From NCBI GenBank assembly GCA_023705905.1, contig BPTK01000001.1, positions 8,799 to 72,798 of the forward strand: a stretch of DNA of 64,000 bases, given 5' to 3'. Shown here one piece after another: positions 33,952-62,708 of the stretch (positions are counted from its first letter, which is position 1; every line of letters starts with the position of its first letter). The notes under the pieces were generated by a model. It saw nothing but the letters and a program-made list of their open reading frames with translations, searched no databases and was not told the DNA's origin. Position numbers and translations under genes: made by a program. This stretch comes from Candidatus Heimdallarchaeota archaeon. GTDB taxonomy: Archaea; Asgardarchaeota; Heimdallarchaeia; Heimdallarchaeales; Heimdallarchaeaceae.

Positions 33952-36147
<2,196 letters not shown>

Positions 36148-41587: not shown

Positions 41588-41646
41588 AGAAGAAACCATC
41601 GCAGATATAATGCTGGCATACAATACATTGATGAGGACAAAGCAAG

Positions 41647-42213: not shown

Positions 42214-42257
42214 AGCAAAGGATCAATTCAGTTATTTTCAAGGAAAAATGGAGAATT

Positions 42258-43316: not shown

Positions 43317-43378
43317 GGAATTTGCTCATTTTAAATATTTAAAAAGATAAAGGTTACTCGAGATTTACTTCGAATAAT

Positions 43379-44089: not shown

Positions 44090-44198
44090 GATATCCAGAA
44101 GAATGAATGATTAATATGTTTTACCCAGTAATTTATGGGGATTTCTTCAGAGATTAAATAGAAAAAAGAGAAAGTGTTTATAATTTTCTTCAATCAAT

Positions 44199-45204: not shown

Positions 45205-45822
45205 ATGAAATTAAAAGCAAAAATTTCACTTATAGGTATTCTTTTTATTTTTTCAACAACAACTTTGATACCTATTAGCACATTTGCTGCAGTTCCTAAT
45301 GCAGTTGATGTAACCATTAGAATAAAGGAATTCGATAGGCTATATAATGACGGTGATTGGTCAAATGCGGGTGATATATTTTTTAAGATATCATACACAT
45401 CAACTGCAACCTCAGGAGTAGCTTATGGTGACTATGAAGACGATGGTAAAGTCCAGAGCCTATCTAATAATGATTTTGATGGAAGTGGCTATTACAATAA
45501 ACAATACTACAACATACGCTTTGATACTGGAAGGTTGTACTGGTATATCTATGTCTATGATCATGATCCATTTGGTGGTCATGATTTATTATTTAAAGGT
45601 AAATTTACGGTTAAAACCCCCTCTACAACTGGTTCTAGATCTTATAACAACGTACACAGCTATGCATGTAAAATGATCAGTCCATCTACAGGATACTGGG
45701 TAACATTAATTGATGGTTTTAGCAACGGAGATTGTTCTTTCTACTGGGAAGATGGAGCAATAAAAAACAACATTTACAACGGAATTACTTTGTGGGTAAG
45801 TTTATACTTCAAGAGGATATAA
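45205..45822 (+). CDS. secreted protein of unknown function (205 aa) upstream of the ABC transporter
   Basis: Signal peptide MKLKAKISLIGILFIFSTTTLIPISTFAA, followed by an aromatic/Gly-rich beta-type mature region. Confidence 0.4.
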   Translation: MKLKAKISLIGILFIFSTTTLIPISTFAAVPNAVDVTIRIKEFDRLYNDGDWSNAGDIFFKISYTSTATSGVAYGDYEDDGKVQSLSNNDFDGSGYYNKQYYNIRFDTGRLYWYIYVYDHDPFGGHDLLFKGKFTVKTPSTTGSRSYNNVHSYACKMISPSTGYWVTLIDGFSNGDCSFYWEDGAIKNNIYNGITLWVSLYFKRI

Positions 45823-45903
45823 AATTGCACGCAAATTATTTTTCTTTTTATTTCGAAATAAATTTATAAACCTAAAATCATCACTAAGTTAAGGGAATAG
45901 TTA

Positions 45904-48411
45904 ATGAAAAGCAAATATAAAATCAAGAAAATTTTGTTATTGCTCCTTCCTCTGTTATTCTCAATCTTGAGTACATATATTGTATACTCAAGTCATTTTA
46001 GCAATTATCATCAACAGCATGAGAAAATATTGACTTCAACATCTCCAGATTATTCAATTATAAAAAATAACAGTTTGATTCTTACAGATCCTAACTTCAA
46101 AACAGATGAGTTCCTAGATCAATTTTCTTTAGATAGTGTCACTTATATTGGCTATCTTCAATGTGAATTAAATTTTGATTCAGAGTTTTATGACCTTGTA
46201 ATATTTTTTGCACCACAAGAGTATTATTCAAAATATAGTAATGTTGCAATAGAAAATAATTCAGTCATTTTGGATAAAACTTTTTCTACATCAAAAGGAA
46301 TAGATTTATTCCAAAATGTCACTTTTGAGTATATTATCGAAGATGAAAAAATAGAATCAAATATTTCAGCATGTAATTTTGCTGAAGTAGAGGATGTTCT
46401 AACTAGCGAATTATTAAAATACAGCTGGGATGAAACCCATGGTGAAATCTATTTATTTGTCTTACCAGATATGTTCAACCAGATATTTAATTTGATTCTG
46501 GAAAATCTAACCTATTATTTCTTACCATTAATCGAGTTTTCTGATGCATTCCTTGGTTCAAATCCCCCACATCAAATACAAAATCTCCTAAGAGAGAAGA
46601 GAGAAAAACTTGATCTATTTTTTGATTACAGTTTCAATAGTTCTAATCTGGAGGAAAGCTGGGTAAGACAGAATTTACTAGAAAGAAAGCTCATTGTTTT
46701 TGAGGAAAATTACAATGAGTACACATGGGCGCGTGTATTAATATTCTATACACTTTGTTTTAGCTTCTGTTATATTGTAATTAGCAATACAACTAAAACT
46801 TATATCAAATCACAAAAAGAAAAGATAGAATTTCAATATATTAGAGGAAACAAAAGAATGCATCTCATAAAGAATCTTGTCGTATCTGAGATTTTAATTG
46901 TGTTCTTTGCAATAACATTCAGCTTTATAATTTCTATTCTTATTATAGGACTCTCTTATCCAAATTTACTAGCTTTTGGTTATTATTATGGAATGAACAT
47001 TGCTTTGGTTAGTTCTATAGCTTTGTTTTACGCTAGCATTCAACTAATGATGCAGATGAAACACCTTACAAAACTCTATAGGAGAGTAAAAAACAGTGAA
47101 GAGACATTACTTAATAAAATCATCAGAATATTTTTGTGGACATTTGCTAATTTAGGTTCAGGAACAGTTCTTTATTTATTCTTATCAAATACCAATCAAA
47201 AAATCGAATCAAAACCAGATTTTTCACTTCTTATTGGGGGAATACTCGTAATATTGTCCATTCTTGTGATGTCAAAAAAAGGAATCATACGGATAGGAAA
47301 AGGAGTATCATATATATTTGTGAGAATCTTAAGAATTGGAAAATACATGCTTAAAACATTGGAAAAGATTACTAATTCAAATTATCGGTTAATTCAATTA
47401 CTCATATTGTTTGGAATTACAGGTTCTTTCTTTTTATCTGGTGCGGACACAATTGTAAATTACCATCATATAAATCAAGAATACAATAAGATTGGAGACC
47501 TATCAATCAATTATCCAGAAGTAGAAACACAGATAGTAGATTCACATTTAGAGATTTATGTAAACATCTCTTCCCATATTCAGCTCTTGAGAGCAAGCAT
47601 GGAATTTGTTAACGATGAAAATAGTTTTGTTTCGCATGGTATTCTGGTGTTCTTAATTAATGATAGTGCAATTTCAACAATCTTTAATTCTGATATTTTT
47701 CAGAAAAATTATGAAGGAACTCAAGAATCTCATCAAGTGGGGAATATTTTAGCTGCAAATTGGAATACGTCTATTATTAATAGAGCTTTTGCTGATTTAA
47801 CAGATAGTTCTCTTGAAGAATTGATTGAAATACCGTTACCAATTACTGATAAATCAGATTTTTATCCAACTAAAATTTATACGCCATCTGTAATTGATAT
47901 AGTAGATTTTGCACCATTTTTTTCGGGTATATCTCAAGAAAGACCGTTCATAATTATGAATGCAAATATTGAAGAGAATGCGACAAAACTTGATATATCT
48001 AGTATTTATCAAAATCTCTGGTTAAAGGATAATATTGATGTAAATCTATTTGCTGATAATCTTCAGAATTTAAATGAAGATTATAATTTACATATAGAAA
48101 TTGTTACTCAAGACAAAGATTCCATAATCACGGATGCATTTTGGATACCTTCAGTTTTGTCTAACTTCATCATCACTCTTTTCTCTATTTTTACATTATG
48201 TTTAGTTGTTCTATACCTTGGATATTACTTAGAAGTAATAGATGGACAATTAAAGAATTTCAGAACTTTCTTTGCAAGAGGTTTATCAATTAATAGGGGG
48301 ATATTTTTCGCGTTTTTACCACTGTTTATACTTACATTTTTGTATATTGTGATTGGATATTTGTTAGGGCTCTTGTTATTTTCGGTTGTTATGATCACAG
48401 TACAACCTTAG
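45904..48411 (+). CDS. ABC transporter permease, duplicated FtsX/MacB-like (YbbP-type), 835 aa
   Basis: TM1, then an extracytoplasmic domain of about 250 aa, then a 4-5 TM cluster, then a second extracytoplasmic domain of about 270 aa, then a 3-TM cluster. It is followed by a paralogous permease and a MacB/LolD-type ATPase. Confidence 0.5.
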   Translation: MKSKYKIKKILLLLLPLLFSILSTYIVYSSHFSNYHQQHEKILTSTSPDYSIIKNNSLILTDPNFKTDEFLDQFSLDSVTYIGYLQCELNFDSEFYDLVIFFAPQEYYSKYSNVAIENNSVILDKTFSTSKGIDLFQNVTFEYIIEDEKIESNISACNFAEVEDVLTSELLKYSWDETHGEIYLFVLPDMFNQIFNLILENLTYYFLPLIEFSDAFLGSNPPHQIQNLLREKREKLDLFFDYSFNSSNLEESWVRQNLLERKLIVFEENYNEYTWARVLIFYTLCFSFCYIVISNTTKTYIKSQKEKIEFQYIRGNKRMHLIKNLVVSEILIVFFAITFSFIISILIIGLSYPNLLAFGYYYGMNIALVSSIALFYASIQLMMQMKHLTKLYRRVKNSEETLLNKIIRIFLWTFANLGSGTVLYLFLSNTNQKIESKPDFSLLIGGILVILSILVMSKKGIIRIGKGVSYIFVRILRIGKYMLKTLEKITNSNYRLIQLLILFGITGSFFLSGADTIVNYHHINQEYNKIGDLSINYPEVETQIVDSHLEIYVNISSHIQLLRASMEFVNDENSFVSHGILVFLINDSAISTIFNSDIFQKNYEGTQESHQVGNILAANWNTSIINRAFADLTDSSLEELIEIPLPITDKSDFYPTKIYTPSVIDIVDFAPFFSGISQERPFIIMNANIEENATKLDISSIYQNLWLKDNIDVNLFADNLQNLNEDYNLHIEIVTQDKDSIITDAFWIPSVLSNFIITLFSIFTLCLVVLYLGYYLEVIDGQLKNFRTFFARGLSINRGIFFAFLPLFILTFLYIVIGYLLGLLLFSVVMITVQP

Positions 48412-48593
48412 TATTATTTACAGATACCCATCACTATTTTTCCTATTTCGTTTTCATTTCTTGCAACACAGATTATCGTTTTAAGTATAGTTCTCGTGAT
48501 TGCTGGGTTTATTTCATATAAAAAATTACAAAAACAAATCCCTGTTATTGGCTCCAATATTTACTCAATTATGCAAGAGGAGGTTTTTGATTC

Positions 48594-51242
48594 ATGAATA
48601 TGTTTAAATTTCTCCTAAAAGGACAAAGAAGAGTTATTATTTTCGAATTAATTGTACTAATTACTTTCTTTTTATCATCAAGCTTTTCTTATGGTTATTA
48701 TTTGAAGACTTATCGAACAGAATGGAACAATCTGTTAGAAGTACAAACAGAACCTGACTTAGAGATACAGATTTCGCAATCTATTGAAAACTATCTAATG
48801 AAAAGGGATGAACTACTAGAAAAAATAGAAAACTTTCAGTATTATTCAATTTCTATACTCCCTTCACATCTTTTTGAGCTAAAGGTAGATAACGAATCAA
48901 ATGAACTTTTTAATTTATACATTCTTAATTCTATGATATTAGAAAAATTAAATTTCTCATTATCTGGGAATCAAGTATTAATAGGTACAGATCAATTTAC
49001 AAATGTAAACTTAAGTACAATTCAAGCTAATTTCACTATACTTTCTGAATACAGTAATACGAATATCATTGGACATTTGAACGAAACCACACTTTATTCC
49101 ACTATTTTTGGGATCAGTAGTGGAAATATTGCGGAAAGCTCAGAAAATATAAGCTTAGTAATCTCAGAATCCTATTTTTCAACACTGCTTTCTTCAATTG
49201 ACACTGAAATTTTACTAAATATAACAGATAATAATCTTACTTATGCTTACTATGTTTTTTCGTTAGATAAGACTAATTTAATGGACAGTTCTCCAAAGAG
49301 TCTGAATAAAGTTTGTAGAGAATGGGGTCTTGAAAGAATTACAGTGTTTTTTCAACTTTACTATCAACAAATAAATCAATTTGCTAGTTTTGGTCTAGAT
49401 ATTAAACCGGTGCTTTTCGATAAATTGAACGATTTATCAAGTAGAATGAATGTCATTCTACTTAATTCAACCGTAGTATTATTTTTTCTTTTCTTTATCA
49501 TAATTCAAGTTTTTCACCAAATGCTTAAGAATAATATTTCAGCCTTCAATAAAATTATTAGTATATTCTCTTCAAGAGGATTAAAAAAACGACAGGCAAG
49601 AATCCAAAGTTTTCTTATACATACTTTAGTATTAGTTTTAGCAGATATAGTATCGCTAGGATTTACTTTTCTTTTTCTCTATTATTTTGAACTTTCTATG
49701 TGGAGTTTTTCTTATACAGTTATCTTAATATCAAATAGCAGTCTCTTTGTAATTAATTTAATATTGCAAATTTCTTTAGTACAACAAATAAATCAAAATA
49801 CTAAACAAGAAGTAGACAAAAAAACAAAGAATAAATCAAGATCAAACACCTTAGATAAGTCAATAAAGATAGGTATTGGAGTACTATTTTTGATTATCGT
49901 ACTGACAATTCTCTCTTTTAATCTAAAGTTTTTGAACTTATCTAATATTTCTATTAGCTCTTTATGGATAATATTTGTTAGTTTAGGAGGGTTAATCATT
50001 TTTATAATGATTATTCCATTCATAATACAAAATTTTATTTTGCAACTTATTCAACATCTACTGAAATATATCTCTCTAATATATACATTTTCAAAAAAAC
50101 TATTTTCAAGTTTGAATAGACAAAAGTATCAAATCTGGAGGATTATCTTCATTCTTCAAGTTTCCTGGTTTCTCATGATTTCAAGTTACACAACCCTCAT
50201 AGTATATCAAGAACAGTCCAAAGCAAGTGCATATTGCTATAATGTATCAATCATGATAGAAACGTCCGCTGTATCAGATGTGAAATTTTTAACTAAAGAT
50301 TGTTTATCTTTAACATCTTATATTGAACCTAAATATGAAACACCGACAGAAGTTAGTGCGATATTTATATATTTAGAAAGTCCAACTTCTTTCTTTAATG
50401 GGACAAATTTCTCTGAGAACTATTTCAAGAAAATGAGTAATTTTCAGGTATTTTCAAAGCTTAATTTATCTGAAGAGTATTTCATCACAACAAGACAAGA
50501 AGCTAAAATGATGGGATATGATATTGACGATATTGTTAGTTTGTACAAAAATGATTTAAATGGAACTAGAATTGAGGAGAGAAAGATACTGTTAGATATA
50601 GCAGATTTTGTTCCTTTTTTCTCCATTATTTTTGATTCTGACAATACTAAACTTTACTTGATGAATTATAATTCTTCATCACATATAATAGGTTTGGATA
50701 ATTATGCAATACATAGTTTTTTAGCAAAAAACGAACATGAAGCTGAACAGATTTTCGTAAGTATAAGAGAAAAACAGCACATTTTCAAAACTATACACAG
50801 TTTCTCATATTCCGATATCGAGGATAAAGTTACACATAATTTCCTTTTACCTGAGTCAGAATTACCTATCTACTTTTTGTCCCTATTAATTCCAGGAATA
50901 CTAATAATCATGCTGATAAATATTCGAAGAGAAGGATATTACTTGTTTTCATTTTTATATAATAAAGGATTAAAGATCAGCACAATAAGAAACAACTTCT
51001 TTTTATGGTTTTTTATGCAATTAACTTCAATTACATTAATATCCTATATTTATTCAATAATAGCTCAACAGAGTATAATTTATATTTTAAATTTGCTTTT
51101 TACTGTACCAATTCACTTTGTTTTTAGCTGGGTACAACTAGGATTGTTTTTAATAATTCTCTCTTCAGTATTAATGTTCATACTACCTTACAACTGGAAT
51201 AAAACTAAAAAATATATCATACAGAAAAATAAAGGAATATAA
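48594..51242 (+). CDS. ABC transporter permease, duplicated FtsX/MacB-like, 882 aa (paralog of 45904..48411)
   Basis: Same two-ectodomain plus two-TM-cluster architecture as the upstream permease. It ends 4 nt before the ATPase gene. Confidence 0.5.
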   Translation: MNMFKFLLKGQRRVIIFELIVLITFFLSSSFSYGYYLKTYRTEWNNLLEVQTEPDLEIQISQSIENYLMKRDELLEKIENFQYYSISILPSHLFELKVDNESNELFNLYILNSMILEKLNFSLSGNQVLIGTDQFTNVNLSTIQANFTILSEYSNTNIIGHLNETTLYSTIFGISSGNIAESSENISLVISESYFSTLLSSIDTEILLNITDNNLTYAYYVFSLDKTNLMDSSPKSLNKVCREWGLERITVFFQLYYQQINQFASFGLDIKPVLFDKLNDLSSRMNVILLNSTVVLFFLFFIIIQVFHQMLKNNISAFNKIISIFSSRGLKKRQARIQSFLIHTLVLVLADIVSLGFTFLFLYYFELSMWSFSYTVILISNSSLFVINLILQISLVQQINQNTKQEVDKKTKNKSRSNTLDKSIKIGIGVLFLIIVLTILSFNLKFLNLSNISISSLWIIFVSLGGLIIFIMIIPFIIQNFILQLIQHLLKYISLIYTFSKKLFSSLNRQKYQIWRIIFILQVSWFLMISSYTTLIVYQEQSKASAYCYNVSIMIETSAVSDVKFLTKDCLSLTSYIEPKYETPTEVSAIFIYLESPTSFFNGTNFSENYFKKMSNFQVFSKLNLSEEYFITTRQEAKMMGYDIDDIVSLYKNDLNGTRIEERKILLDIADFVPFFSIIFDSDNTKLYLMNYNSSSHIIGLDNYAIHSFLAKNEHEAEQIFVSIREKQHIFKTIHSFSYSDIEDKVTHNFLLPESELPIYFLSLLIPGILIIMLINIRREGYYLFSFLYNKGLKISTIRNNFFLWFFMQLTSITLISYIYSIIAQQSIIYILNLLFTVPIHFVFSWVQLGLFLIILSSVLMFILPYNWNKTKKYIIQKNKGI

Positions 51243-51246
51243 GCAA

Positions 51247-51933
51247 ATGAATAAAGAAAAGGAAACTATCATCCAAATTTTTGATTTACTTCATGTTTAT
51301 AAAGGGAAAGTGGAAACAATAGCACTTCCTGGCATAAATTTATCCGTTAAAAGGGGAGAACGTTTAGTTATAAGGGGTAAGTCAGGTGTAGGAAAAAGTA
51401 CTCTACTCTATTGTGTTGCAGGAATACTTAAACCAACTACAGGGAAAATCCTTGTAAAAAGTAAAGATATTACAGATTTTAATGAAGATCAGCTAGCAGA
51501 TCATCGATGTTTAACAGTAGGGTTAATTTATCAATCATATAATTTAGCACCGTTTTTAAACGTTAGAGAAAATATTGAGTTTCCTATGGTATTGGCGAAA
51601 ACTCAGGTAGAAAAGAGAAAAAAACGCATTAAAGAACTTTCAGAATTTCTAGAAATTGAAAGATATCTAGAACAAAAACCTGAATATCTAAGTGGGGGAG
51701 AACAACAACGTGTAGCAATTGCTGTAGCTCTTGCAAATAATCCTCCCATAATATTAGCAGACGAACCAACAGGGAACATCGATGAAGAAGCATCTAAAAT
51801 GGTTTATGAGCATCTTTCACAACTATGTCAGGTCTACAACAAAACGTTAGTATTAGCTTCTCATGATCCTAAAGCAAAGGATTATGCAGATAGAGAGATT
51901 TTTCTTTCAAAAATAAAAACTGACAACCTTTAA
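51247..51933 (+). CDS. ABC transporter ATP-binding protein (MacB/LolD-type)
   Basis: Walker [13 protein letters not shown]-loop, ABC signature [15 protein letters not shown], Walker [12 protein letters not shown] and H-loop LASHD. Confidence 0.85.
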
Positions 51934-52014
51934 TTTGAGAAAAATTTGTGAGAATAATACTTAATTCTTCTTTGCTAGCCATAATAATAAGGTTATGAAA
52001 TCTCCACTTATTAC

Positions 52015-52129
52015 ACCTACATATTAACCTGACACAAATCACTAATCATAACATCTTAAGATGACTAGTGGGATTGCACCGATTCATAGCTACCTACATA
52101 TTAACCTGACACAAATCACTAATCATAAC
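52015..52129. repeat. perfect 38-bp direct repeat pair (acctacatattaacctgacacaaatcactaatcataac) flanking a 39-bp unique segment
   Basis: Repeat 1 is 52015-52052, repeat 2 is 52092-52129 and the spacer is 52053-52091. It sits in the 684-bp intergenic region between the ABC ATPase gene and the giant-protein gene. Confidence 0.8.
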
Positions 52130-52617
52130 CAGTAACCCAGATCGTAAAAAGCTACTCCTACAATTAAAGTTAAACCAGCTACACCAATTGTTACAAAGAA
52201 AGCTATCTTTTCTAAATTCTCTGGGATATCAAAATTAGGAATAATCTTGGATAAGGCTACGAAACCAAAAAAGAGGAAACCAACAGACAATATTACGTGG
52301 ATAAGAAAAACCTAATACTATTGAATTGTGAACCAACCCAGAAATAGTATGAATCACTTTCATACCAACCACCTATACAATTTAAAAGAACTAAAGATAT
52401 AGCAATAACAGTTTAAAGGAGAGAAATAAAATAATAAGCAGGTTTAGCATAAAACGGTTTTTGTTCACTTGACATTAAGTAAACTGGTGCCACTTGTATA
52501 AAAAACATTCTTGGGAAGATTTAGAGTGTAAACGTAAGTTTTATTAAAAAAACATAAGAAAAACGATGAAATTTTACACGGTATATATATCAAATTGAAA
52601 ATGAGTACTATAAGAAC

Positions 52618-55600
52618 ATGTGTACCATTAACAATCGTATTAGTTATTTTACAATTTTCATAATGCTTTCATCTTATCTACTGTGTTCTGTTAGTTTGAC
52701 ACCCTCTGTATTAGATACATCTGCTAATATGCAAGCACCTATAATAAACGATGAAATTATTTACATTTATAATACATCAGACACCAGGCAAGAATTCATA
52801 CTAAAAAACAAAAGTCTAGATCTGGGAAGGTTCAACAATTTATCACTAGTATTTGAAATTTCAGGCGAAAAGACTGACGTAAATGGAATTGAAGTATCAT
52901 TCATAATCAATTCAACGAAGATTGATTTCATTCTTGCGAAACATTATCAAAATAGCGGAGTACAAGTCTTATCTCAAGCTTTTGAATATCCAAATGAGTT
53001 TACTGGTTCCATGAATATAACTATTGTATGCAAGGCAAAAGTATTTTCAGGAGGTTCTGGTACACTTCGTATAATAAATTCAACATTAATTGAAAAATTG
53101 GCAATACCCGAGATCCAAAGCAACCCGAAAATAATTCCTGTATATCCCAATTGGTTGATTTTTGATGGTTATGCCTTTGGAGAAAGAAATAGGACTGTAA
53201 AGACTGCGTTTCTAAATACAAAAGAAAACCAGAGTCTCAATCTTTCCGTTTTTTTTGTGTTCAATGATATCCAAACAGTCTCAAAAAAGATAATTTTGGA
53301 AATAAACAGCGAAATAGTTGATATTAGGGAAATTAAGGTTGGGACAAATTTGCTAATCTTTCAAAATCTCAAAATTGAACAAGGATTTAACCTTATACAG
53401 TGTTACTTTAGTTTTCAATATTGCAATAGTTTAATTGAAATTAAAGATATAAATTTCTTAGGAAATTCATACTCGTTTTTGGACTTTCTTCCCCTTAATT
53501 CATACGATTGGATTTATTGGAGAGGAGATGGAATAAATCATTCAATTGATTTATCGGCACTAAAACCTCAAAGTACTGAAAGATCTCTGAAAATATGGTT
53601 TTATTTAGATTTTGGTTGTTTGGGAACAATAATCTCGCCTTCAATTCATTATGAGATTCATGATGGATATGTGAAACTTTGTGAAGGATACATTTCAGAA
53701 CAGTCCCAAAAACAATCATTTAGCCAAATTATAGAACAAACATGGACTTCATTTCATGACACACAATTGAAGATATGTCTTTATGGAAGTACAGAAGGAG
53801 AAGTCGTCTTTTATTTATTGAATACAAGTAGAATTGAAATAGAGTCTATTCCTGAAATAACTACAGAGACCTACGAGACCATCCTCATAGAAGAAGAAGA
53901 AATTAGAACACCACAATTAAGTTATTTCGAAATTAGCATATGTGAGCGATTCTTTTTCAATAATTCTGAAACAATGCAGTACAGCTTCTTCTTACTATTC
54001 GATTTCATTAGGAAAGATCATGAAGGAATCAGCTATATCAAAGTTGAAGTTTATGAAGGAAACTTCCTGCTAATTGAAGAAACTGTTGATAAGCAAGGAA
54101 AAACTAATCTCACCGCCTTATTTTCTGCAAAAAAAGTTAATTCTTTGGTGAATATTACTCTATCAATATTTGGTGCTGGAAATACGATAATAATTCGGAA
54201 CATGTATATTCAAATTAAACTTTTTGTGGAAGAACAAAATACAAATAATGAAGATGATTCAAATACTAATTTTCTCAGAGATAAATGGATTCTGCAAGGT
54301 ATTTTATTGCTTTATCAAGCTTCAATGTTATCGATTTTAGTTCTTCAAGAATTAAGAAGAAGAAGCAAATATGTACATGAACTGGGAGTAAAAGAGTTAA
54401 TAATAAATATTCTTCATTCGAAAAAATATAAGAAGAAACAGCTTCTCAGTCTTACTTTGAAAATCATCAGTTTTATAATCCCGTTTGCAATCACTTTCTT
54501 TTTATTAAAAGAATTCAATTATTTGACTTCTTCATTAAGTCAAATAATATGCTCAATAGTTTGTGGAAGTATTTTCTTTGCTTTAATGGATTTGTTAATG
54601 TATAGAATAGGTAAAAAAAGCCGAAGTCTTTTATCGAAAGGTGCAACAGTTAGAAAGAAAAAAACTGCACTAAATGTGTATGAAAAAATAAGAAACTGGT
54701 TGGCAATATCTAAGAAAAGAAGGCAAAGAATAATTTTGATTGTTGGGGTGCTTACACATCTTATATCTATAAATTTTATTATGAGTTTTTTATTGAATCA
54801 CTCCATATTAGGGGATTATTATTTTCACGTAGAGTGCATTGATTGTATTGCTTGGGGGATGAATCTGTCTATATTGGGGATATTTCTTTCGATTTTTCCT
54901 TGTTTTTTTATCATTAAACTTGGTTTTAATATGATTTCCTTCGAAGACAATATTATAAAATCCTTGCTACTAGGATTGTTAGTTTTATCAACACTGTTCT
55001 TTTCTTGGGGTGTATTTCTTTATTTTATCATAATAAACAAATCTTACTTAGACTCAAACATTTATTCAATTCTTTGGACACTCGCAATGCCAGTGGGTTT
55101 CGCTTTCTTGTTAGGAATTGTGTATAGGTTAGGAAAGAGCAAAGCAAAAGAGCTTAATATTACATTCCTTTCGCTACTAAAATGTGGTAAATTTACTGTA
55201 AATCAAGAAGAAATAACCCAAGCTTTTCAGAATGGTAATTCATCGAGAATGGATTATCAGAAAGTTCAGGATGATGTTCATAGAGAGGTGTTATATCATT
55301 CAATTCAGAAGAATCTTGTATTAAATTCATCAATATCTTTTAAGGGTCTTTCAAGAATTGCTAATGTACCTGAGAGCAAGATTGAAGGATTGCTCACAGA
55401 TATTCTAGATGAAATTCTGAATATGGGGACTATTGCTATAGCGAATAAAACCTTTACTCTAAAGAAAATTGGATCAGATAACATTTTCAGCATTAATGGA
55501 GGTTTAGATAAGAGGGATGTAGCTAATTGCAACAAAAAACATACCAGCATTGATTTAGGGCCCATCAAATTTGAGGAAATTGGAGGAAAACAAAACCTAG

Positions 55601-58600
55601 TAGCACTTTTCAAAAATATAGATATAAAATTCAACGATGAGAAAGTAGCACTTAGAGCATATTCGATGCTGGGGCATATTTTTGACGGTTATGTACATCA
55701 GTATAAAGAAGGAAATTATTTGTTATCTCTATTAAACTCTTTTTCTACTAAAATTGGAAATAAGATAAAGAATCAATCAATAAACGAATCAAATCTATGT
55801 CTCCTATCGGAAGGGGAATACAATCGAATACTTTCTGATTTTGGAAGACAAATAAATCTTAGATATGCAAAAGGAAGGAGATTCAAATCTTGGATACATG
55901 GTTTAGTTGGGTCGTTGATGACAAGATTTTTTGAAAGAATGACACTAAGCATGGATGAAAAGAAAGAATCACTTATTGAACCGTTTAATGAGATTACCAA
56001 CAAAGATACAACGATTCATCTCGATTTAGATATAGGACCAAATCATAGATCCTTAGATATTTTAGGGAAAACAGAAAGTGGAGGGTATATTTTTGGAGAG
56101 AATAAGTATACACAAGGTTCTTTAATTTCTGCCTTGAGTAATGCAACTAAAGTACACAAGGGTTCAGATTTACTAGCAAATCACAATCAAAGGGTTGATT
56201 ACGTAACAACAACTGAAAATCAAGGATTCGATTTATATGTCAGATGGGGGGATTTTATCCTTGATTTAAAGGAAGAATTGTATGTTTTAAACAACCGATA
56301 TAAAACATGGCCAAAGAATAATAAGAACAATAAAATTATACAAAATCAGCTAAGAGTATTGAGAGAGTGCATGAGTATTGGAGGAATGACAGAAATCGTA
56401 AAACTCATGCAAATAGAGATGGTTGAGCAATTTGGGAAGTGTGTCAATTTTGAACTGTTCGACATAACAAAACTAGCTTGTTATAAACTGGAAAAAATAC
56501 AAATCCCAGAAAACATCAAACAATTCTTCATACCTGAAACAACATCAATATTATTACCTTACATAAAAGTTGAGAATCTTAAAATTCCTTTTATTCCAAT
56601 AAAAGAGTCACTAGATTATAAGAGAGAAGGCGGAAGAGGAAGTTACTATACTTACTTGATATTTGGATTTTTGGATAATGAAAAAAAAGAAAAAGAAAGG
56701 TATACTAAATTCGGGTATCAACTACTTACTCCTGATAAGTTCGAGAAATATAATTTTGGTTTAGAACTAATAGAAGGACTACCCTTGGATCAAGGAACAG
56801 TAAATTGTAAAGTATTCACGGTCAAAAGGGGGAAAACTAAAAGTGTTTCAATAAGAAAACTGAGAAATGAGAAGATTGCAATAACACTGCCTATAAATGG
56901 AAAAATGGTAACAATAGATGATCTTAGATTTAAAAATATAATATCAGAAAAGAGAAGAAGAAGAATATCTAATAGAAGGTTTTTAAGAAAACTCATATCA
57001 TCGAATGATAATTTCAGAAAAACTGAAATAGAAGAAGAAATTGAACAGTATTTTGAGAAAGGTATTATACGTGAATTCAATGTAACAATGATTGATTCTT
57101 TAACTTGGGAAGCTTTAGGCTACTTATTACCAAAAACAATTGATGAGATAAATTCAAAGGTTCCAGCAGCAGATATAGCTTTTTATCTCAGATTAAAGGG
57201 GAATTTTGAATATTGTAAGCAAGATATCATTGTATCATTTAAAAGCAGAAATTTAAATTTGACACATGTTTCAGATCCATCAAAGCCCTTACCTAAACTC
57301 TATAAACTGGGAGTAGCAGACATCATAAGAGCAGATGTGGAGCGACAGATAATCAGCCAAAATGACTATACAGTAGATGACGTACTTAAGAACATAGAGA
57401 AAAGTTGCAAAGATTACAATTATGAAAGTGAATTGTTAAGAAAGTTTGTTTCACCATTTATGTTAATAGAGTTGATGAAAAGTGAATGTTTTGAACAGCA
57501 TTCTAATGAACTTTATTACAACTTTCGGAAATATTTTGATGCTCATAAAGAGATAAAATTAGTTAAAGACCCCTTAGATGAAGATAAGATCATTGATCCC
57601 AGAATAAGTATTTCATCAGCACGAAATCTACTATTCGATTTCTTTAAGTTTCAAGAATTTAGGAGCATTAATCAGAATTGCGCAGATAATGAGAAGATTG
57701 ATAGCATTACTTATAACAAGATTATTAACAACAAAATTAAGAACTATGAAATTCAAAGACTTAGAAGTCTTCTAGTTTTTATGGAAGATAACAATAAAAA
57801 ACCAATTTGCAAAATTACTCCTTTCTGGGCTGTTATTTCTGAAAAAGTTATACCAAAGACCCTCAAAAGGTACATACTTTGCAATGGAAAAATAATTCCT
57901 GTAAAGTATAGAACAAATTTTGGTGGAAATAGCATCTATCCAATGATTTCAAGTAGATTTACAAGTATCAGAACTATCAGCTCAGGAAAAAAGGAAAATA
58001 GATATTTGTTTATGCAGTCTGTGCTAGGAGTATTAGCAGGACTTTCTTTTCAACCGAAAACAAAAAAGAGAAAATTAAGCGCAAAAACCTCTTTTGAAAT
58101 AGGAAACATCATGAAAGATTCATACAAAAACCTTCTATTCCCAACAAACAATAAGAATAACAATTTAAGAGCAAGTCGAATCGCAGTTAATGAATTAAGG
58201 ACCTTTAGAAAACAATTACGTGAAGGTGTTCAAGAACATCAGAATTCTAGTTACAAGAGATATGGAGAGAAGGTTGTAGGAGCTTTTATTTCTAGAGCAA
58301 AGGATTTCAAAACGAACAAAGGAATACTCAAAAGAGATATTCTTGTGATAAGGTTATATATAAATGGATATTCAAGAATACACTTTGGAGGGAAAGATGT
58401 TGAAGTCTTAAAACCCAGTTATTCTTTGTTCAGTATACAAAAATCAAGTGGTTTAGGAGATATGGAAGGCATTGAGACAGTTCTTTCCTTGAACAAGTTA
58501 CAATTTCTTGAGCTAAAAAGCAAATTAGAAGGAAAAATACCATGGTCCAAAGAGGATAAGGGAATCACAGAACAAGAACTCTGCAAAACTAGTTTTATGA

Positions 58601-59424
58601 AAGATTTATTTATAGCATATGAGAGATTTAGATTTACTAGAAAGCTAAAAAAAGATGGTAGCAAGGGAACAGATGTATTCCATGTTACAGATACAGAACA
58701 TAAACATGGGATGAAAAAAGAATATTCAAAAAGAAATAGAAGATTATTCATCAGAAACAGCTATATGGCAAGTTATAATCATGATGAACTCAAGAAATTC
58801 ATATCAAAGTATATAGAATTCCTAGGAAATCATAAATCAACGGAGCACCTGACTGAAATATCAGTAAAGCTTCTTGTTGATAAAATAGATAAAGATGGAC
58901 ATAGAACAGTTTCTTCCATAGGAAGAGCACTTCAAAAAACGAAAATATTGAACTTGAAAACAGGTGAAACAAGCTCAGTATTAGGTTATAACATTGAGTA
59001 TCTTTGGCAAGAACTAGAAGAAATATTAAGATTGAAAGAGAAATTAATTTCATTTTATGATGCAGGTGTTATTAGTCATACAGTTTCAAGAGATTCAAAG
59101 ATAAAATTCTATTCCAGAAAACTACGGGAACTGAATCCAGAATATAGCATCTTTGAAAGTATTATTTACAATGATGAAGAGTATAATTTCTCACCTGATT
59201 CTTATGCATGGTTTGATAACAAATCAGGGCAAGTTATCTCATTGGAAACCGTCCTACTAAAAGGAATTAGAAAAGGATATATTGACAAACAACAAAAGTT
59301 AGTAAAGATATTTGATTTGCTTCAAGTATTTCAAAATGAATTAGTTAAAGTTACAACTGATAAACAAGGGAGGATCCATGGTAAAACCAAAGGATGGACA
59401 AAGTTGAACTCTGAACTTAGCTAA
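52618..59424 (+). CDS. giant membrane-spanning protein (2268 aa) of unknown function
   Basis: Signal peptide, then an N/I/S-rich ectodomain of about 540 aa, then a block of 6-7 TM helices (about 54285-55140). The K/E-rich cytoplasmic region of about 1400 aa contains a wHTH-like segment (FKGLSRIANVPESKIEGLLTDILDEIL, about 55230-55500) and a PD-(D/E)xK-like motif (IHLDLDIG ... SLDILGK ... YIFGENKY, about 56017-56110). It is a single uninterrupted frame. Confidence 0.6.
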   Translation: MCTINNRISYFTIFIMLSSYLLCSVSLTPSVLDTSANMQAPIINDEIIYIYNTSDTRQEFILKNKSLDLGRFNNLSLVFEISGEKTDVNGIEVSFIINSTKIDFILAKHYQNSGVQVLSQAFEYPNEFTGSMNITIVCKAKVFSGGSGTLRIINSTLIEKLAIPEIQSNPKIIPVYPNWLIFDGYAFGERNRTVKTAFLNTKENQSLNLSVFFVFNDIQTVSKKIILEINSEIVDIREIKVGTNLLIFQNLKIEQGFNLIQCYFSFQYCNSLIEIKDINFLGNSYSFLDFLPLNSYDWIYWRGDGINHSIDLSALKPQSTERSLKIWFYLDFGCLGTIISPSIHYEIHDGYVKLCEGYISEQSQKQSFSQIIEQTWTSFHDTQLKICLYGSTEGEVVFYLLNTSRIEIESIPEITTETYETILIEEEEIRTPQLSYFEISICERFFFNNSETMQYSFFLLFDFIRKDHEGISYIKVEVYEGNFLLIEETVDKQGKTNLTALFSAKKVNSLVNITLSIFGAGNTIIIRNMYIQIKLFVEEQNTNNEDDSNTNFLRDKWILQGILLLYQASMLSILVLQELRRRSKYVHELGVKELIINILHSKKYKKKQLLSLTLKIISFIIPFAITFFLLKEFNYLTSSLSQIICSIVCGSIFFALMDLLMYRIGKKSRSLLSKGATVRKKKTALNVYEKIRNWLAISKKRRQRIILIVGVLTHLISINFIMSFLLNHSILGDYYFHVECIDCIAWGMNLSILGIFLSIFPCFFIIKLGFNMISFEDNIIKSLLLGLLVLSTLFFSWGVFLYFIIINKSYLDSNIYSILWTLAMPVGFAFLLGIVYRLGKSKAKELNITFLSLLKCGKFTVNQEEITQAFQNGNSSRMDYQKVQDDVHREVLYHSIQKNLVLNSSISFKGLSRIANVPESKIEGLLTDILDEILNMGTIAIANKTFTLKKIGSDNIFSINGGLDKRDVANCNKKHTSIDLGPIKFEEIGGKQNLVALFKNIDIKFNDEKVALRAYSMLGHIFDGYVHQYKEGNYLLSLLNSFSTKIGNKIKNQSINESNLCLLSEGEYNRILSDFGRQINLRYAKGRRFKSWIHGLVGSLMTRFFERMTLSMDEKKESLIEPFNEITNKDTTIHLDLDIGPNHRSLDILGKTESGGYIFGENKYTQGSLISALSNATKVHKGSDLLANHNQRVDYVTTTENQGFDLYVRWGDFILDLKEELYVLNNRYKTWPKNNKNNKIIQNQLRVLRECMSIGGMTEIVKLMQIEMVEQFGKCVNFELFDITKLACYKLEKIQIPENIKQFFIPETTSILLPYIKVENLKIPFIPIKESLDYKREGGRGSYYTYLIFGFLDNEKKEKERYTKFGYQLLTPDKFEKYNFGLELIEGLPLDQGTVNCKVFTVKRGKTKSVSIRKLRNEKIAITLPINGKMVTIDDLRFKNIISEKRRRRISNRRFLRKLISSNDNFRKTEIEEEIEQYFEKGIIREFNVTMIDSLTWEALGYLLPKTIDEINSKVPAADIAFYLRLKGNFEYCKQDIIVSFKSRNLNLTHVSDPSKPLPKLYKLGVADIIRADVERQIISQNDYTVDDVLKNIEKSCKDYNYESELLRKFVSPFMLIELMKSECFEQHSNELYYNFRKYFDAHKEIKLVKDPLDEDKIIDPRISISSARNLLFDFFKFQEFRSINQNCADNEKIDSITYNKIINNKIKNYEIQRLRSLLVFMEDNNKKPICKITPFWAVISEKVIPKTLKRYILCNGKIIPVKYRTNFGGNSIYPMISSRFTSIRTISSGKKENRYLFMQSVLGVLAGLSFQPKTKKRKLSAKTSFEIGNIMKDSYKNLLFPTNNKNNNLRASRIAVNELRTFRKQLREGVQEHQNSSYKRYGEKVVGAFISRAKDFKTNKGILKRDILVIRLYINGYSRIHFGGKDVEVLKPSYSLFSIQKSSGLGDMEGIETVLSLNKLQFLELKSKLEGKIPWSKEDKGITEQELCKTSFMKDLFIAYERFRFTRKLKKDGSKGTDVFHVTDTEHKHGMKKEYSKRNRRLFIRNSYMASYNHDELKKFISKYIEFLGNHKSTEHLTEISVKLLVDKIDKDGHRTVSSIGRALQKTKILNLKTGETSSVLGYNIEYLWQELEEILRLKEKLISFYDAGVISHTVSRDSKIKFYSRKLRELNPEYSIFESIIYNDEEYNFSPDSYAWFDNKSGQVISLETVLLKGIRKGYIDKQQKLVKIFDLLQVFQNELVKVTTDKQGRIHGKTKGWTKLNSELS

Positions 59425-59507: not shown

Positions 59508-59616
59508 GGGCCTGTGGCTCAGTTAGGCAGAGTTTGTTTCGAGGTATTCGACAAACGCCTAAAGCAGCGGACTCTTAATCCGTCGGTCGTCGGTTCAAAT
59601 CCGACCAGGCTCGCCA
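59508..59616 (+). tRNA. tRNA-Lys (anticodon CUU) with an intron of about 32 nt at a non-canonical position (26/27 junction); CCA is encoded
   Basis: Acceptor GGGCCTG/CAGGCTC with a G-U wobble. D-arm GCTC-AGTTAGGCA-GAGT. Intron tgtttcgaggtattcgacaaacgcctaaagca. Anticodon arm GCGGA-CTCTTAA-TCCGT. Variable loop CGGTC. T-arm GTCGG-TTCAAAT-CCGAC. Discriminator G, then CCA. Confidence 0.65.
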
Positions 59617-59785
59617 TTATCTTTCTTTTTCATATGTCCCCAGTAAATTTCTGATAATAGTTTCATTCGTAAGATTGTTCCTTCGACTTCTGGTAAAAAA
59701 TCTATTCTACCAAAAAATATTCCTTGTTTAGCATAAAGAAGGTTAGTATAAGAACAATAATCACCTAACGTTTTACATTTCTCTA

Positions 59786-60121
59786 TTGTTTTATCTGTTA
59801 TCTCTAAAACTTCTTCCCCTCCCAATTCCTGTAACTCTTTCTGATCTTTCTATCAATCTTGTACCAGTAGATATGAATGACGAAGATTCCTACCTTCAAG
59901 CTCTCCGAGATTATGAACAGTCACTCCATCAAGGAGTCAAAGACCCTTTAATCTTTGGTCTCAAGAAAATCTTTGAACAATCTTACAAGGATTTCACTTC
60001 CTTTCTCTCCTCCTTCGATTCTCTCTTTTTCCTTAAGAAACAAACAGAAGATATGAAACAACTTGATGATGCTCTCTCTCATCTTGTCACTGAACTAACC
60101 TCCCATTTACAAGTAGATTGA
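59786..60121 (+). CDS. hypothetical protein (111 aa)
   Basis: An ORF with no recognisable motifs. It competes with the minus-strand ORF 59595..59825, which overlaps the tRNA antisense. Confidence 0.2.
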   Translation: MFYLLSLKLLPLPIPVTLSDLSINLVPVDMNDEDSYLQALRDYEQSLHQGVKDPLIFGLKKIFEQSYKDFTSFLSSFDSLFFLKKQTEDMKQLDDALSHLVTELTSHLQVD

Positions 60122-60272
60122 AGTGGATGTGAAGCAGTTGCTTACTTCTGAAGAACACACTACACTTACTTCTTTTTCTTTTTATAGAATTTGTTGGAAA
60201 GATATCTGAGTATGAAAGAAGATGAGAGAGGGAGAGACTGATATTATGTGTCAATCCCCTTCTAATAATATA

Positions 60273-60956
60273 TTAAATATTTCTGCGTTTTCTCCTTAGG
60301 ATTACAATAAATACGTATGAAGATAGTGAAATAAATACTAAAGAGAATATGGGGGAAAATTTTGCCTCATCAGTAGGTTGTTCAGTAGGTTGTTCAGTAA
60401 TATCAAAGAGACTATGCGTTATATTCATAACACCAGAAGCCATTGTAATAACTGTTATCAATTGCTCTCCTGGTGTAATATCATCAGGGTTGAAAACTGT
60501 ACCTATATATATAGGTCTCCAGAGAGTATAGTTGCCATCTGGAAGATGAAATAAACCTGTTTGATTAATATAAAACTTGATAAATGCATGTTCAACTGTT
60601 ATACCAGGTTGATAGGAATAATGCATAATTGTCGCATGGGCATACACTCTTTGTTTAATTTCCAATGATTGATTAACAAATGATGCATTAATCAAGACTT
60701 TAGAAGTCAAATCTGATAATTCGATTACCGTTTGATTTTCCGTATCTCTATTTAAGATCTCTACTTCTGCTTCGATACCAAATAAGGTATTATTTGACCT
60801 ATAAAAATCTGGATCTGTAATTACTGTAATGTAACTGATTCTAGAAATTCTTGAAGCAATAACTGGTTGATCTCCATTAACTGATAACGCAGTAGGAAAA
60901 ATAAGCATCGGTATTAGTATTGATACAATCAAGAATTTTTCTAGTATTTTATTCAT
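60273..60956 (-). CDS. secreted protein with a PTEQ repeat linker and a C-terminal TM anchor followed by a basic tail (sorting-signal-like)
   Basis: The likely start is MNKILEKFLIVSILIPMLIFPTALS (signal peptide); the ORF track starts at 61022. The C-terminus reads PTEQPTEQPTDEAKFSPIFSLVFISLSSYVFIVILRRKRRNI. The linker is encoded by a 12-bp tandem repeat at about 60376-60405. Confidence 0.4.
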   Translation of the reverse strand: MNKILEKFLIVSILIPMLIFPTALSVNGDQPVIASRISRISYITVITDPDFYRSNNTLFGIEAEVEILNRDTENQTVIELSDLTSKVLINASFVNQSLEIKQRVYAHATIMHYSYQPGITVEHAFIKFYINQTGLFHLPDGNYTLWRPIYIGTVFNPDDITPGEQLITVITMASGVMNITHSLFDITEQPTEQPTDEAKFSPIFSLVFISLSSYVFIVILRRKRRNI

Positions 60957-61032
60957 GAATTTTTTCCTCCTTGTTGATTTCATTAATGCTGAGTCCTTAA
61001 TTATATATATACAAAAAAACATATAAAATTTT

Positions 61033-62199
61033 TTAGGCTGCTAATCTTCCCTCCATAAACGCTTTTCCATAAGCTGTATAGGCATCTACATAACCATATC
61101 CCATAAATGTGTCAAATGTGTTTCTTGAACTAGCATAGTGCAAAATGTCAATTACTTTCTGCACAGAAGGATCAGTAGAAGAACCAATACCATTGTGATA
61201 TCCTGTAATAATTAAAGCTACTATAGCAGCTAGATAAGGAGTACTTAAACTAGTTCCGAATGCATATTTCCAAGTTCCTCTATAGCAATGTAGACTAGAA
61301 TCATAATAAGCATTAGTTAATACAGGAATACCATTTCCAGGTTCAAGCCAATTAACAATATGGTTTCCTGCTGTATAACCTTCGTACCATGACGAAAACC
61401 ATGATTTATGACCCTTCCATGATCCGTCTCGATTTTCATGATCAATTGATCCAATAGAATACCACTCTGTATAATATGATTGATATTTATGATATTCGCC
61501 ATCCCAATAATTCCCAGCACTAAAATAATTTCCTGCCGCAGTAAGCATTATCACCTTTTTACTTAACAAACTATTCCACCTTTGCTGAATTGAACTTGTT
61601 GTAAAATCTTCATAATGTACCATTGACCAATTAATAATATCAATATCCTTCGATGCTTGGTTGTTATCTATCCATTGCCAAATCTTGTATTCTCCATATT
61701 CAAATCCATATGGGTCAGTAACTTCATCAATTTCATGTTGTAAATCAATAAAGATTACTTTCACGTTTCTTGCAATTGCAGCTAGTACAGATATAACCAT
61801 AAAACCATGACCATGATGGATTTGATTATCTAAATACGGATCATCATAATCATAAATAGTTTTTATAGATCCAGTCGAAGTTTCTGTTATAAAATACATG
61901 ATGTCCACATTAGCTTCAGGATTTTGTTCTAATGCCTTCCACTCCTTATCTGTCAGACCTTCATCTATTACAACGATAGTTACATAATTATCAATTTCGA
62001 CTCCATAATCATAGACCACAACGTCTACTCCTGTATAGGTATATGCTGTATCCTGAAGGTGTCCTACTTTTACCGATGGGTTGGATACATTATAACCCGG
62101 TGTTCCACATGTTTCGCCACTTACAGGAAACACACTGAAGTTCACAGTTGGAGCTATCCCTGTTAATACTATAAATAATATTGCTACTGTTTTTTCCAT
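61033..62199 (-). CDS. secreted subtilisin-like (S8) serine peptidase
   Basis: Signal peptide. Asp region DVVVYDYGVE, His region HGHGFMVISVLAAIA and Ser region GTSLSTPYLAAIVALI, in the D-H-S order of the S8 family. Confidence 0.5.
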   Translation of the reverse strand: MEKTVAILFIVLTGIAPTVNFSVFPVSGETCGTPGYNVSNPSVKVGHLQDTAYTYTGVDVVVYDYGVEIDNYVTIVVIDEGLTDKEWKALEQNPEANVDIMYFITETSTGSIKTIYDYDDPYLDNQIHHGHGFMVISVLAAIARNVKVIFIDLQHEIDEVTDPYGFEYGEYKIWQWIDNNQASKDIDIINWSMVHYEDFTTSSIQQRWNSLLSKKVIMLTAAGNYFSAGNYWDGEYHKYQSYYTEWYSIGSIDHENRDGSWKGHKSWFSSWYEGYTAGNHIVNWLEPGNGIPVLTNAYYDSSLHCYRGTWKYAFGTSLSTPYLAAIVALIITGYHNGIGSSTDPSVQKVIDILHYASSRNTFDTFMGYGYVDAYTAYGKAFMEGRLAA

Positions 62200-62516
62200 T
62201 TCATCTAAACAACCTCTTTCTAATTATCCAATTTTTGTCTCTTCTAATTAGATAGTCGACCGAATGTGATTCACTTCAAATTATTTAAATTTTCTCTAAA
62301 GGTTTTTCTAGAAAATTAATTGTTGATTTTTCATATCTTTTAATGATTGATAAGTAGTTCAAGAATAAATATCCAACTTTCTATATTTTCCAATTCTCTG
62401 TATAGAATTACAGTTGATTCTGCGTCAAGTAGTTCACAATATTTCCATATGGCAAACCCGTTTGGTAGTGCGAAGTAACTATGATAATCTAGGAATACCT
62501 CTAAAATTTGTTGTGA

Positions 62517-62597
62517 GCAGACTCTTAATCGTTAAGCTTGTTGGCTTACGAGTTAGAAATCTGTCGGTCGGCGGTTCAAATCCGCCCAGGCTCGCCA
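62517..62597 (+). tRNA. tRNA 3' portion (positions 27-76, anticodon CUU) with a canonical 31-nt intron at 37/38; no 5' half nearby. Candidate split-tRNA 3' half gene or tRNA pseudogene
   Basis: GCAGA-CTCTTA[a tcgttaagcttgttggcttacgagttagaa]A-TCTGT, variable CGGTC, T-arm GGCGG-TTCAAAT-CCGCC, acceptor 3' strand CAGGCTC-G-CCA. No G[AG]G[CT][CT]TG acceptor 5' strand or D-arm lies within 300 nt upstream. Confidence 0.4.
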
Positions 62598-62708
62598 CAT
62601 TTATTTCTTCCAAATCTTAAGAAGAACACTATTTCTCATATTAATTTAGAAAGGATAAGATCACCATAATTCTTATGATTTAGAAAGTATAGTTTCTTAT
62701 CAATAAAA

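Follow-up and report, generated by a model that had tools for sequence, protein, structure and literature searches.

A receptor-like giant protein from Heimdallarchaeaceae defines an orphan family with a conserved cytoplasmic module

Bacterial 7TMR-DISM receptors combine a signal peptide, an extracytoplasmic domain, seven transmembrane (TM) helices, and a cytoplasmic signaling module. Anantharaman and Aravind reportedly described them in 2003 as 7TM receptors with diverse intracellular signaling modules. RgsP is one example (PMC6107284). We analyzed a 64,000-nt stretch of DNA from a Candidatus Heimdallarchaeota archaeon (contig BPTK01000001.1, positions 8,799 to 72,798; hereafter, the window), in which one gene encodes a giant protein of 2268 residues with the same layout and the same N-out/C-in orientation. 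The extracytoplasmic domain of the bacterial receptors is beta-rich. The giant protein differs in being archaeal, in that its ectodomain, TM region, and cytoplasmic segments gave no match to the Pfam profiles 7TMR-DISM_7TM or 7TMR-DISMED at E values up to 5, and in that its 1433-residue cytoplasmic part lacks a kinase, cyclase, GGDEF, or phosphatase module. An initial annotation of the window, made from the letters alone, had held that this architecture resembles nothing described. Given the 7TMR-DISM layout, that statement was too strong, although it is correct that no membership at the sequence level was found. Our tentative preference is for a lineage-restricted accessory membrane protein that is built like a 7TM receptor and has a nuclease-like or ligand-binding cytoplasmic core.

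Other described systems share single features with the giant protein. The 7TM ion channels (7TMICs) reported from Heimdallarchaeota have their N-terminus inside the cell and their C-terminus outside (bioRxiv 10.1101/2023.08.30.555482). They are likewise seven-helix membrane proteins and come from the same phylum, whereas the giant protein has the opposite orientation and huge extra- and intracellular domains. SNIPE is a membrane-bound anti-phage nuclease of Escherichia coli (bioRxiv 10.1101/2025.11.03.685801). It embodies the idea of a nuclease anchored to the cytoplasmic membrane and thereby sets a precedent for the logic of the initial annotation, which had imagined an extracellular sensing domain coupled to an intracellular nucleic-acid-binding or nuclease module. 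SNIPE is a bacterial, experimentally characterized defense protein, whereas the giant protein is known here from sequence alone. PADLOC, whose library may predate SNIPE, indicated no relation between the two, and no defense context was found. Aloposons of Ca. Heimdallarchaeum carry tandem giant genes, Otus and Ephialtes, that encode proteins of 3000-6000 residues, together with a MinD/ParA ATPase (PMC8813620).

The gene, its topology, and its family

The gene is a single uninterrupted open reading frame (ORF) on the forward strand, with an ATG start, 2268 codons, and a stop, which bears out the 6.8-kb ORF of the initial annotation. A scan of species-representative genomes returned three orthologous loci from two Candidatus Heimdallarchaeota metagenome-assembled genomes (MAGs). 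HM4_B41 (contig L003) has an open orthologue that aligns without gaps from residue 1 to residue 1921, where the contig ends, with 89.8% amino acid identity and no indel over 1921 codons. In 7H_bin003, it lies on two contigs that cover residues 1136-1894 (L004) and 1888-2268 (L005) at 87-91% identity. The Nei-Gojobori ratio of nonsynonymous to synonymous divergence (dN/dS) against HM4_B41 was 0.22 overall, 0.12-0.42 per region, and 0.04-0.66 in windows, with the minimum of 0.04 at residues 1201-1350, a stretch that contains the conserved LLPYxK...IPFxPI. In this comparison, the ectodomain shows the greatest divergence within the gene (86% amino acid identity, dS 0.42). Stop codons are AT-rich. 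A spurious ORF or a chimeric assembly is ruled out by the low dN/dS, the intact orthologues, and so long an open frame at a guanine-plus-cytosine (GC) content of 30%; the gene is real and under purifying selection. The initial annotation had regarded fragmentation in related genomes as a sign of chimerism. One related copy, 91% identical at the nucleotide level to the 3' part of the gene (L002 3-2740; JGI 3300029812, contig Ga0311295_1156960), is indeed broken: a premature stop replaces E1386, and 1 nt is deleted near codon 1980. This speaks for dispensability in that strain and not for a chimera here.

The protein has a signal-peptide-like segment, an ectodomain of ~525 residues, seven TM helices, and a cytoplasmic region of 1433 residues, in the orientation N-out/C-in. 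Kyte-Doolittle hydropathy shows a hydrophobic N-terminal stretch at residues 8-31, followed by TSA-N, and seven hydrophobic helices at 558-576, 612-630, 643-661, 705-723, 750-768, 788-806, and 817-835; the regions at about residues 32-557 and C-terminal to the helices are hydrophilic. The loops after TM1 to TM7 contain 10, 1, 16, 0, 1, 1, and 6 lysines or arginines, respectively. In terms of the positive-inside rule, those after TM1, TM3, and TM7 (10, 16, and 6) contrast with the alternate loops (1, 0, and 1). N-x-S/T sequons are enriched in the ectodomain only (14 observed versus 6.2 +/- 2.2 in shuffles, P=0.0005; 12 versus 12.1 expected in the cytoplasmic part). The orientation follows from these loop charges together with the confinement of the sequon enrichment to the ectodomain. 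The layout proposed in the initial annotation is thus upheld by hydropathy, loop charge, and sequons, with its count of six to seven helices corrected to seven. Its lysine-rich cytoplasmic region needs more qualification: the lysine content of 9-13% goes with the 30% GC of the gene, and only residues 1481-2268 are clearly basic (net +41). A motif search agreed with the earlier statement that the 2268 residues contain no Walker A motif. Self-BLAST revealed no internal repeats in the giant protein, and an impression of four ~125-residue repeats in the ectodomain found no support from hhalign.

Searches of Pfam, NCBIfam, PADLOC, and PHROGs with the whole protein and its segments gave no significant match, and sequence and profile searches of the PDB (phmmer and hmmsearch, with the protein and with alignments) returned nothing. 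That no catalytic domain is recognizable, as the initial annotation put it, therefore holds across all of these libraries. Phage and plasmid collections (tblastn) and scans of IMG/VR also yielded nothing, and neither did two metagenome scans or a first genome scan yield a homologue. Word-indexed protein searches returned only the query itself, the protein P0008, or nothing; the first of them missed P0008 despite 86-88% identity, which makes these searches a weak negative. HMMER, run exhaustively against 1.84 billion representatives with residues 860-2059 as the query, retrieved one protein, P0007 (E=1e-11; BLASTP 1e-27). Such a search cannot show regions that are absent from truncated representatives, and the query's own cluster was not returned, so its negatives are weaker. 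P0007 is a 5'-truncated product of 798 residues on a Heimdallarchaeaceae contig. A longer fragment from its 90% cluster, P0009 (MHA1347835.1, 1115 residues), has a frame without a stop as far back as the beginning of its 3.4-kb contig. The P0009/P0007 composite is colinear with about residues 1092-2268 of the giant protein over ~1180 residues, at 28% identity. Judged from these alignments, the family has at least two deep lineages, both within Heimdallarchaeaceae, with a common cytoplasmic module of at least 1180 residues. By the same evidence, the giant protein represents a new lineage-specific orphan family that matches no known family in the libraries searched.

The conserved cytoplasmic block and a winged-helix-like segment

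The best-conserved block of the whole module shared with the homologue spans about residues 1133-1221, as read from a four-sequence alignment that includes the 28%-identical homologue. Invariant positions are D1136, G1140, N1142-H-R-S-L-D1147, E1161-N-K1163, T1165, G1167-S-L, K1178, D1184, E1200-N-Q-G-F-D1205, R1209, G1211-D1212, and D1216; E1153, A1172-L, and Y1207 are also listed as conserved. The block includes the strings in which the initial annotation had seen a D...D...ExK core of the restriction-endonuclease fold: IHLDLDIG (1133-1140), LDILGK (1146-1151), and IFGENKY (1158-1164). The strings are present in the stated order, and D1136, D1147, E1161, and K1163 are conserved, whereas D1138 is not. 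The proposed gaps of 10 and 9 residues are in fact 5 and 6, with 11 residues from D1136 to D1147 and 14 from D1147 to E1161. The latter distance is 9 residues in the homologue, a variability that would be as expected for a hairpin loop between two strands. We also considered DLDIG as the DxG motif of an RNase-H/RuvC or actin fold and discarded the idea, given the leucine in place of D1138 in the homologue.

The PD-(D/E)xK superfamily is known to escape sequence methods (PMC1189080). Compared with its member Hjc, an archaeal Holliday junction resolvase (PDB 1HH1), the block has the same succession of hDhh, hairpin, and hhhExK and then a helix (LDILGKTESGGYIFGENKY in the giant protein, LDAIYEKGIIENKV in the homologue, and PDIIALKNGVIILIEMKS in Hjc), and the acidic and lysine residues are kept across 28% identity. 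The D...ExK motif gains weight only because it is conserved in this distant homologue. AlphaFold2 modeled the surroundings of the block as a helix, three strands, a short helix, and a strand, which is compatible with the alpha-beta-beta-beta-alpha-beta order of a nuclease core; with a predicted local distance difference test (pLDDT) score of 34, the model is no evidence for one. The block differs from PD-(D/E)xK enzymes in several respects. Profile similarity is absent (Pfam and PDB searches were empty, and hhalign against an Hjc alignment gave a probability of 1.5%, in a low-powered comparison with one family), the block is embedded in a 2268-residue membrane protein, and the additional invariant N1142-H1143-R1144, ENQGFD, and GDxxxD fall outside the canonical motif. 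The alignment marks the block as a genuine conserved site rich in catalytic-type residues, and a PD-(D/E)xK reading of it is reasonable, if doubtful.

Structure prediction followed by Foldseek, the route suggested by the initial annotation, was applied to this region. The AlphaFold2 models had a mean pLDDT of 33.9 for residues 841-1480 (single sequence) and 33.5 for residues 1478-2268 (with P0008 and P0007). Foldseek with the low-confidence 841-1480 model found no PDB match at E<=0.001 and no nuclease in the top 50; a model this poor does not turn that outcome into a negative. Foldseek with the 1478-2268 model gave nothing of note.

N-terminal to the block, the initial annotation had proposed a winged helix-turn-helix, with the string LSRIANVPESKIEGLLTDILDEIL at residues 911-934. 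Three weak hints concur. The Pfam family PCI matches residues 883-930 below threshold (E=0.13, 13 bits versus a cutoff of 22), the model has a strand-helix-helix and then a beta-hairpin at residues 905-960 (pLDDT ~34), and the top Foldseek matches are almost all winged-helix proteins, including ArsR/CadC, PCI subunits of the proteasome lid and CSN, MarR, TFE-alpha, TrmBL2, and eS25. With E values of 0.064-0.66 and probabilities of up to 0.96, none of these matches is significant, and a significant family-profile match is missing. A winged helix at residues 883-960 is thus plausible. The segment is less conserved among close orthologues than the region past residue 1200, and the distant homologue does not cover it. 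PCI-type winged helices bind proteins. For this reason, nucleic-acid binding does not follow from the PCI hint; a PCI-like winged helix would argue for protein rather than DNA binding.

If the receptor-like reading is right, the N-terminal signal would be either cleaved or used as an anchor, and the acidic, probably N-glycosylated, and fast-diverging ectodomain of ~525 residues would contact something outside the cell. The seven-helix bundle would join it to a 1433-residue cytoplasmic part with three components: a domain resembling a winged helix, the conserved core (residues 1133-1221 together with the strongly constrained 1201-1350), and a C-terminal region of ~790 residues that is basic and for the most part helical. 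On their predicted strand-hairpin-strand-helix, the invariant D/H/D/E-N-K residues of the core could form a metal-dependent phosphodiesterase or nuclease-like site, PD-(D/E)xK-like or of another small nuclease fold; alternatively, the core would at least be a ligand-binding site. A nucleic-acid- or partner-binding activity would in either case be held at the inner face of the membrane and influenced by the ectodomain. We infer glycosylation, receptor behavior, the winged helix, and any catalytic activity or substrate from the features described above.

Several observations weigh against this reading. D1138 is leucine in the homologue, and K1218, part of a second possible DxK, is arginine. The bare pattern D-x(8-25)-[DE]-x-K is no rarer than chance in the region (12 observed versus 16.3 expected). 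Because both AlphaFold2 models are unusable, the secondary-structure and Foldseek hints carry little weight. The same residues could also be read as a His-Me-like NH...ENK or a HAD-like DxD...GDxxxD. None of the libraries searched gave a profile, sequence, or structural match to a nuclease, a receptor, or a member of another family. Because the contigs of the homologue are truncated at the 5' side, the module may reach further toward the N-terminus, and membrane anchoring of the homologue is not evident. Finally, the L002 copy, with its stop and 1-nt deletion, is likely a pseudogene, which would mean that at least one strain can do without the gene, or else both changes are errors of assembly.

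Genomic setting and recent exchange

Upstream of the giant gene, a 7.7-kb low-GC segment (44819-52527) contains a 205-residue secreted ORF, multi-TM permease-like ORFs of 835 and 882 residues, a 228-residue ATP-binding cassette (ABC) ATPase (Pfam ABC_tran, 8e-33), and a pair of 38-nt repeats. HM4_B41 lacks this cassette in a locus that is syntenic apart from it: the equivalent of window positions 39289-44818 joins directly to that of 52525 onward. A 17-nt imperfect direct repeat flanks the insert (44802-44818, GTAAACGAAAGTTTAAT; 52528-52544, GTAAACGTAAGTTTTAT). In HM4_B41, the unoccupied site has a single hybrid copy; no recombinase gene is visible in 44802-52544. The ABC cassette is a strain-specific insertion, and the giant gene is independent of it. 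The initial annotation had noted an FtsX/MacB ABC transporter immediately upstream of the gene. The implied link is refuted by HM4_B41, which lacks the cassette and keeps the giant gene; of the transporter itself, the ABC ATPase is confirmed, whereas the 835- and 882-residue ORFs have no Pfam match to FtsX or any other family.

The ABC genes and the giant gene are separated by a 684-nt gap containing small reverse-strand ORFs. The 38-nt direct repeats (ACCTACATATTAACCTGACACAAATCACTAATCATAAC), also reported in the initial annotation, form a perfect pair at 52015-52052 and 52092-52129, 39 nt apart. Their dimensions are CRISPR-like, but a mini-CRISPR was rejected for want of more than two copies, of copies elsewhere in the window, and of visible cas genes. 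A same-strain Logan contig (L006, 99.99% identical) breaks inside the first repeat. Hydrophobic ORFs of 55 and 45 residues lie between the repeats and the giant gene (52123-52372, reverse strand). About 90 nt upstream of the giant gene, including the TATA-box-like TATATATAT, are kept in HM4_B41 despite the missing cassette. Because the TATA-like stretch persists there, we infer that TATATATAT serves the giant gene as a separate promoter of archaeal type, which would leave a short leader or none.

Downstream, 83 nt past the stop codon, lies a tRNA-Lys(CTT) gene (59508-59616, forward strand) with a non-canonical intron of ~30 nt in the D-arm region. ARAGORN in its default mode and an Rfam scan at gathering thresholds both miss it; with its intron option, ARAGORN labels 59508-59616 as a tRNA-Asp with a 30-nt intron, and after removal of 28-35 nt it reports tRNA-Lys. 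Right past this tRNA, synteny with L002 and L005 stops. Its 3' part is repeated at 62558-62620, and in 7H_bin003 (L005) ~6 kb downstream. The downstream copy reads GGCGG...CCGCC, as in the relatives, and the intact tRNA-Lys gene reads GTCGG...CCGAC. These repeats bear the signature of a ~3-kb element (59617-62620) integrated into tRNA-Lys, whose genes include an S8 peptidase and membrane or secreted ORFs and no integrase. At the same tRNA, 7H_bin003 has a different, 6-kb island (L005 1350-7364) that encodes an S8 peptidase with TSP3 repeats and a beta-helix/NosD protein, and the L002 contig has an empty site.

Synonymous divergence changes within the gene itself. In the comparison of window positions 52618-58379 with HM4_B41 (L003) 5570-11332, dS was 0.31-0.57 in the ectodomain, next to 0.44-0.75 in flanking core genes (39249-44636). 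Past about residue 550, and as far as the contig reaches, dS falls to 0.09-0.22, about three-fold below both. This step suggests that the TM and cytoplasmic part (the 3' ~5 kb) was exchanged between Heimdallarchaeal lineages at a later date than the genome around it; alternatively, synonymous constraint may be unusual here. GC is also low in the giant gene and the cassette (0.27-0.31 versus 0.34-0.38 in the surroundings). Together, the low dS, the low GC, and the pseudogenized copy lend the gene an accessory, possibly conflict-related, flavor.

The wider window has Asgard-like chromosomal neighbors, namely an Arf-family small GTPase (41647-42213, forward), CDC48 (33952-36138, reverse), and aEF2 (3376-5700, forward). 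A cluster at 9852-18810 on the reverse strand includes giant ORFs of 1226 and 1034 residues with DUF4350 and DUF4129. Among these context genes, the 1034-residue ORF and a 530-residue ORF had no Pfam match.

Table 1. Features of the giant gene and its product, with positions in the 64,000-nt window
Feature	Position	Strand	Basis
TATATATAT, TATA-box-like element	52582..52590	+	28-36 nt before ATG, read from the sequence
Giant ORF, 2268 residues	52618..59424	+	ORF call; orthologues intact, dN/dS 0.22
Residues 1-31, signal-peptide-like hydrophobic segment	52618..52710	+	Hydropathy and sequence; R7, h-region 8-31, then TSA-N
Residues 32-557, predicted extracellular domain	52711..54288	+	Net -24, 14 N-x-S/T sequons, no Pfam match
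Residues 558-835, seven predicted TM helices, N-out/C-in	54289..55122	+	Hydropathy peaks, loop K/R counts
Residues 883-960, winged-helix-like segment including LSRIANVPESKIEGLLTDILDEIL	55264..55497	+	Pfam PCI E=0.13, low-confidence model, Foldseek
Residues about 1088-2268, cytoplasmic module common to distant homologue P0009/P0007	55879..59421	+	Colinear, 28% identity
Residues 1133-1221, best-conserved block, candidate active or ligand-binding site	56014..56280	+	Four-sequence alignment
Residues 1201-1350, most constrained stretch among close orthologues	56218..56667	+	dN 0.006, dN/dS 0.04

Alternative explanations and meaning

The giant protein might instead be a non-catalytic structural or anchoring protein, a possibility that we regard as real though doubtful. 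Its ectodomain would serve surface adhesion or envelope organization, and a cytoplasmic scaffold made of a PCI-type winged helix and helical repeats would tether partners such as the cytoskeleton, ESCRT, or GTPase machinery, with the conserved block acting as a binding interface. The only family-like hints obtained are indeed to protein-binding winged helices (the sub-threshold PCI match and the Foldseek matches to the proteasome lid and CSN), and the C-terminal ~790 residues are largely helical in the model (pLDDT 33.5). The lack of a catalytic domain in any search fits as well, as do the sequon-rich ectodomain, which is like that of archaeal surface proteins, and the secreted products of the nearby variable islands (S8 peptidases, beta-helix, and TSP3 repeats). 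However, the most conserved positions are charged or polar residues of the kind that active sites have (D, H, D, E, N, K, D) and not hydrophobic ones as at an interface, self-BLAST shows no cytoplasmic repeats, and the structural hints all come from models with a pLDDT of ~34.

Unlikely, in our assessment, is a conflict or mobile-element gene, whether a membrane-tethered nuclease that, like SNIPE, attacks foreign DNA as it enters at the membrane or a giant, selfish passenger of an element that resembles aloposons. Membrane-bound defense nucleases exist, as SNIPE demonstrates, and the gene is a pseudogene in one strain; the recent exchange suggested by dS past residue ~550, the depressed GC of gene and cassette, and the use of tRNA-Lys as an integration hotspot also speak for such a gene. 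The locus also echoes an aloposon in its particulars, being from the same archaeal family and having four upstream genes (encoding 205, 835, and 882 residues and the 228-residue ATPase), a giant gene, and a tRNA directly downstream in a low-GC, variable neighborhood (compare PMC8813620). Yet it has one gene of 2268 residues instead of a tandem of 3000-6000, its ATPase is ABC-type and not MinD/ParA, the presence of the four-gene cassette varies without regard to that of the giant gene, and no tRNA directly follows the gene in the distant lineage. Protein searches, none of them aimed at Otus or Ephialtes, gave no homologue besides P0007 and P0009 and no similarity to those two proteins. Moreover, four related genomes have the giant gene in an unchanged place, the variable islands have inserted beyond the tRNA, on its 3' side, neither an integrase nor a transposase is encoded in the vicinity, and PADLOC, PHROG, phage, plasmid, and IMG/VR searches gave no match. 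We consider still less probable the most far-reaching version of these ideas, a new class of archaeal transmembrane effectors, confined to the nearest archaeal kin of eukaryotes, in which a glycosylated ectodomain and 7TM region would be coupled to a cytoplasmic nuclease and nucleic-acid-binding machine of >1100 residues that acts at the membrane, for example by cutting viral or mobile DNA in the manner of SNIPE or by powering a giant-gene mobile element.

A spurious or decaying ORF, or an assembly chimera, without a functional product is effectively refuted: although the protein is an orphan matched only by close relatives and one distant lineage, and one related copy has a stop and a frameshift, 2268 stop-free codons at 30% GC cannot arise by chance, two independently assembled MAGs are intact with zero indels over the 1921 codons compared, dN/dS is low throughout, and a colinear distant homologue and coherent topology signals complete the case.

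The giant protein is at present a well-documented orphan with no demonstrated new mechanism, one among many uncharacterized Asgard proteins. Among archaea, Heimdallarchaeia are the nearest known relatives of eukaryotes, and a large part of their protein complement is unexplained. Against this background, the analysis defines a new protein family with a clear topology and a conserved cytoplasmic module, and it supplies invariant charged residues that are directly mutable: D1136, H1143, D1147, E1161, K1163, D1205, D1212, and D1216. If the core is a nuclease, the giant protein would give archaea their first example of nucleic-acid cleavage tethered to the membrane by a receptor-like protein. As a scaffold, the protein would be a candidate connector between membrane and cytoplasm in a lineage relevant to the origin of eukaryotic cell organization.

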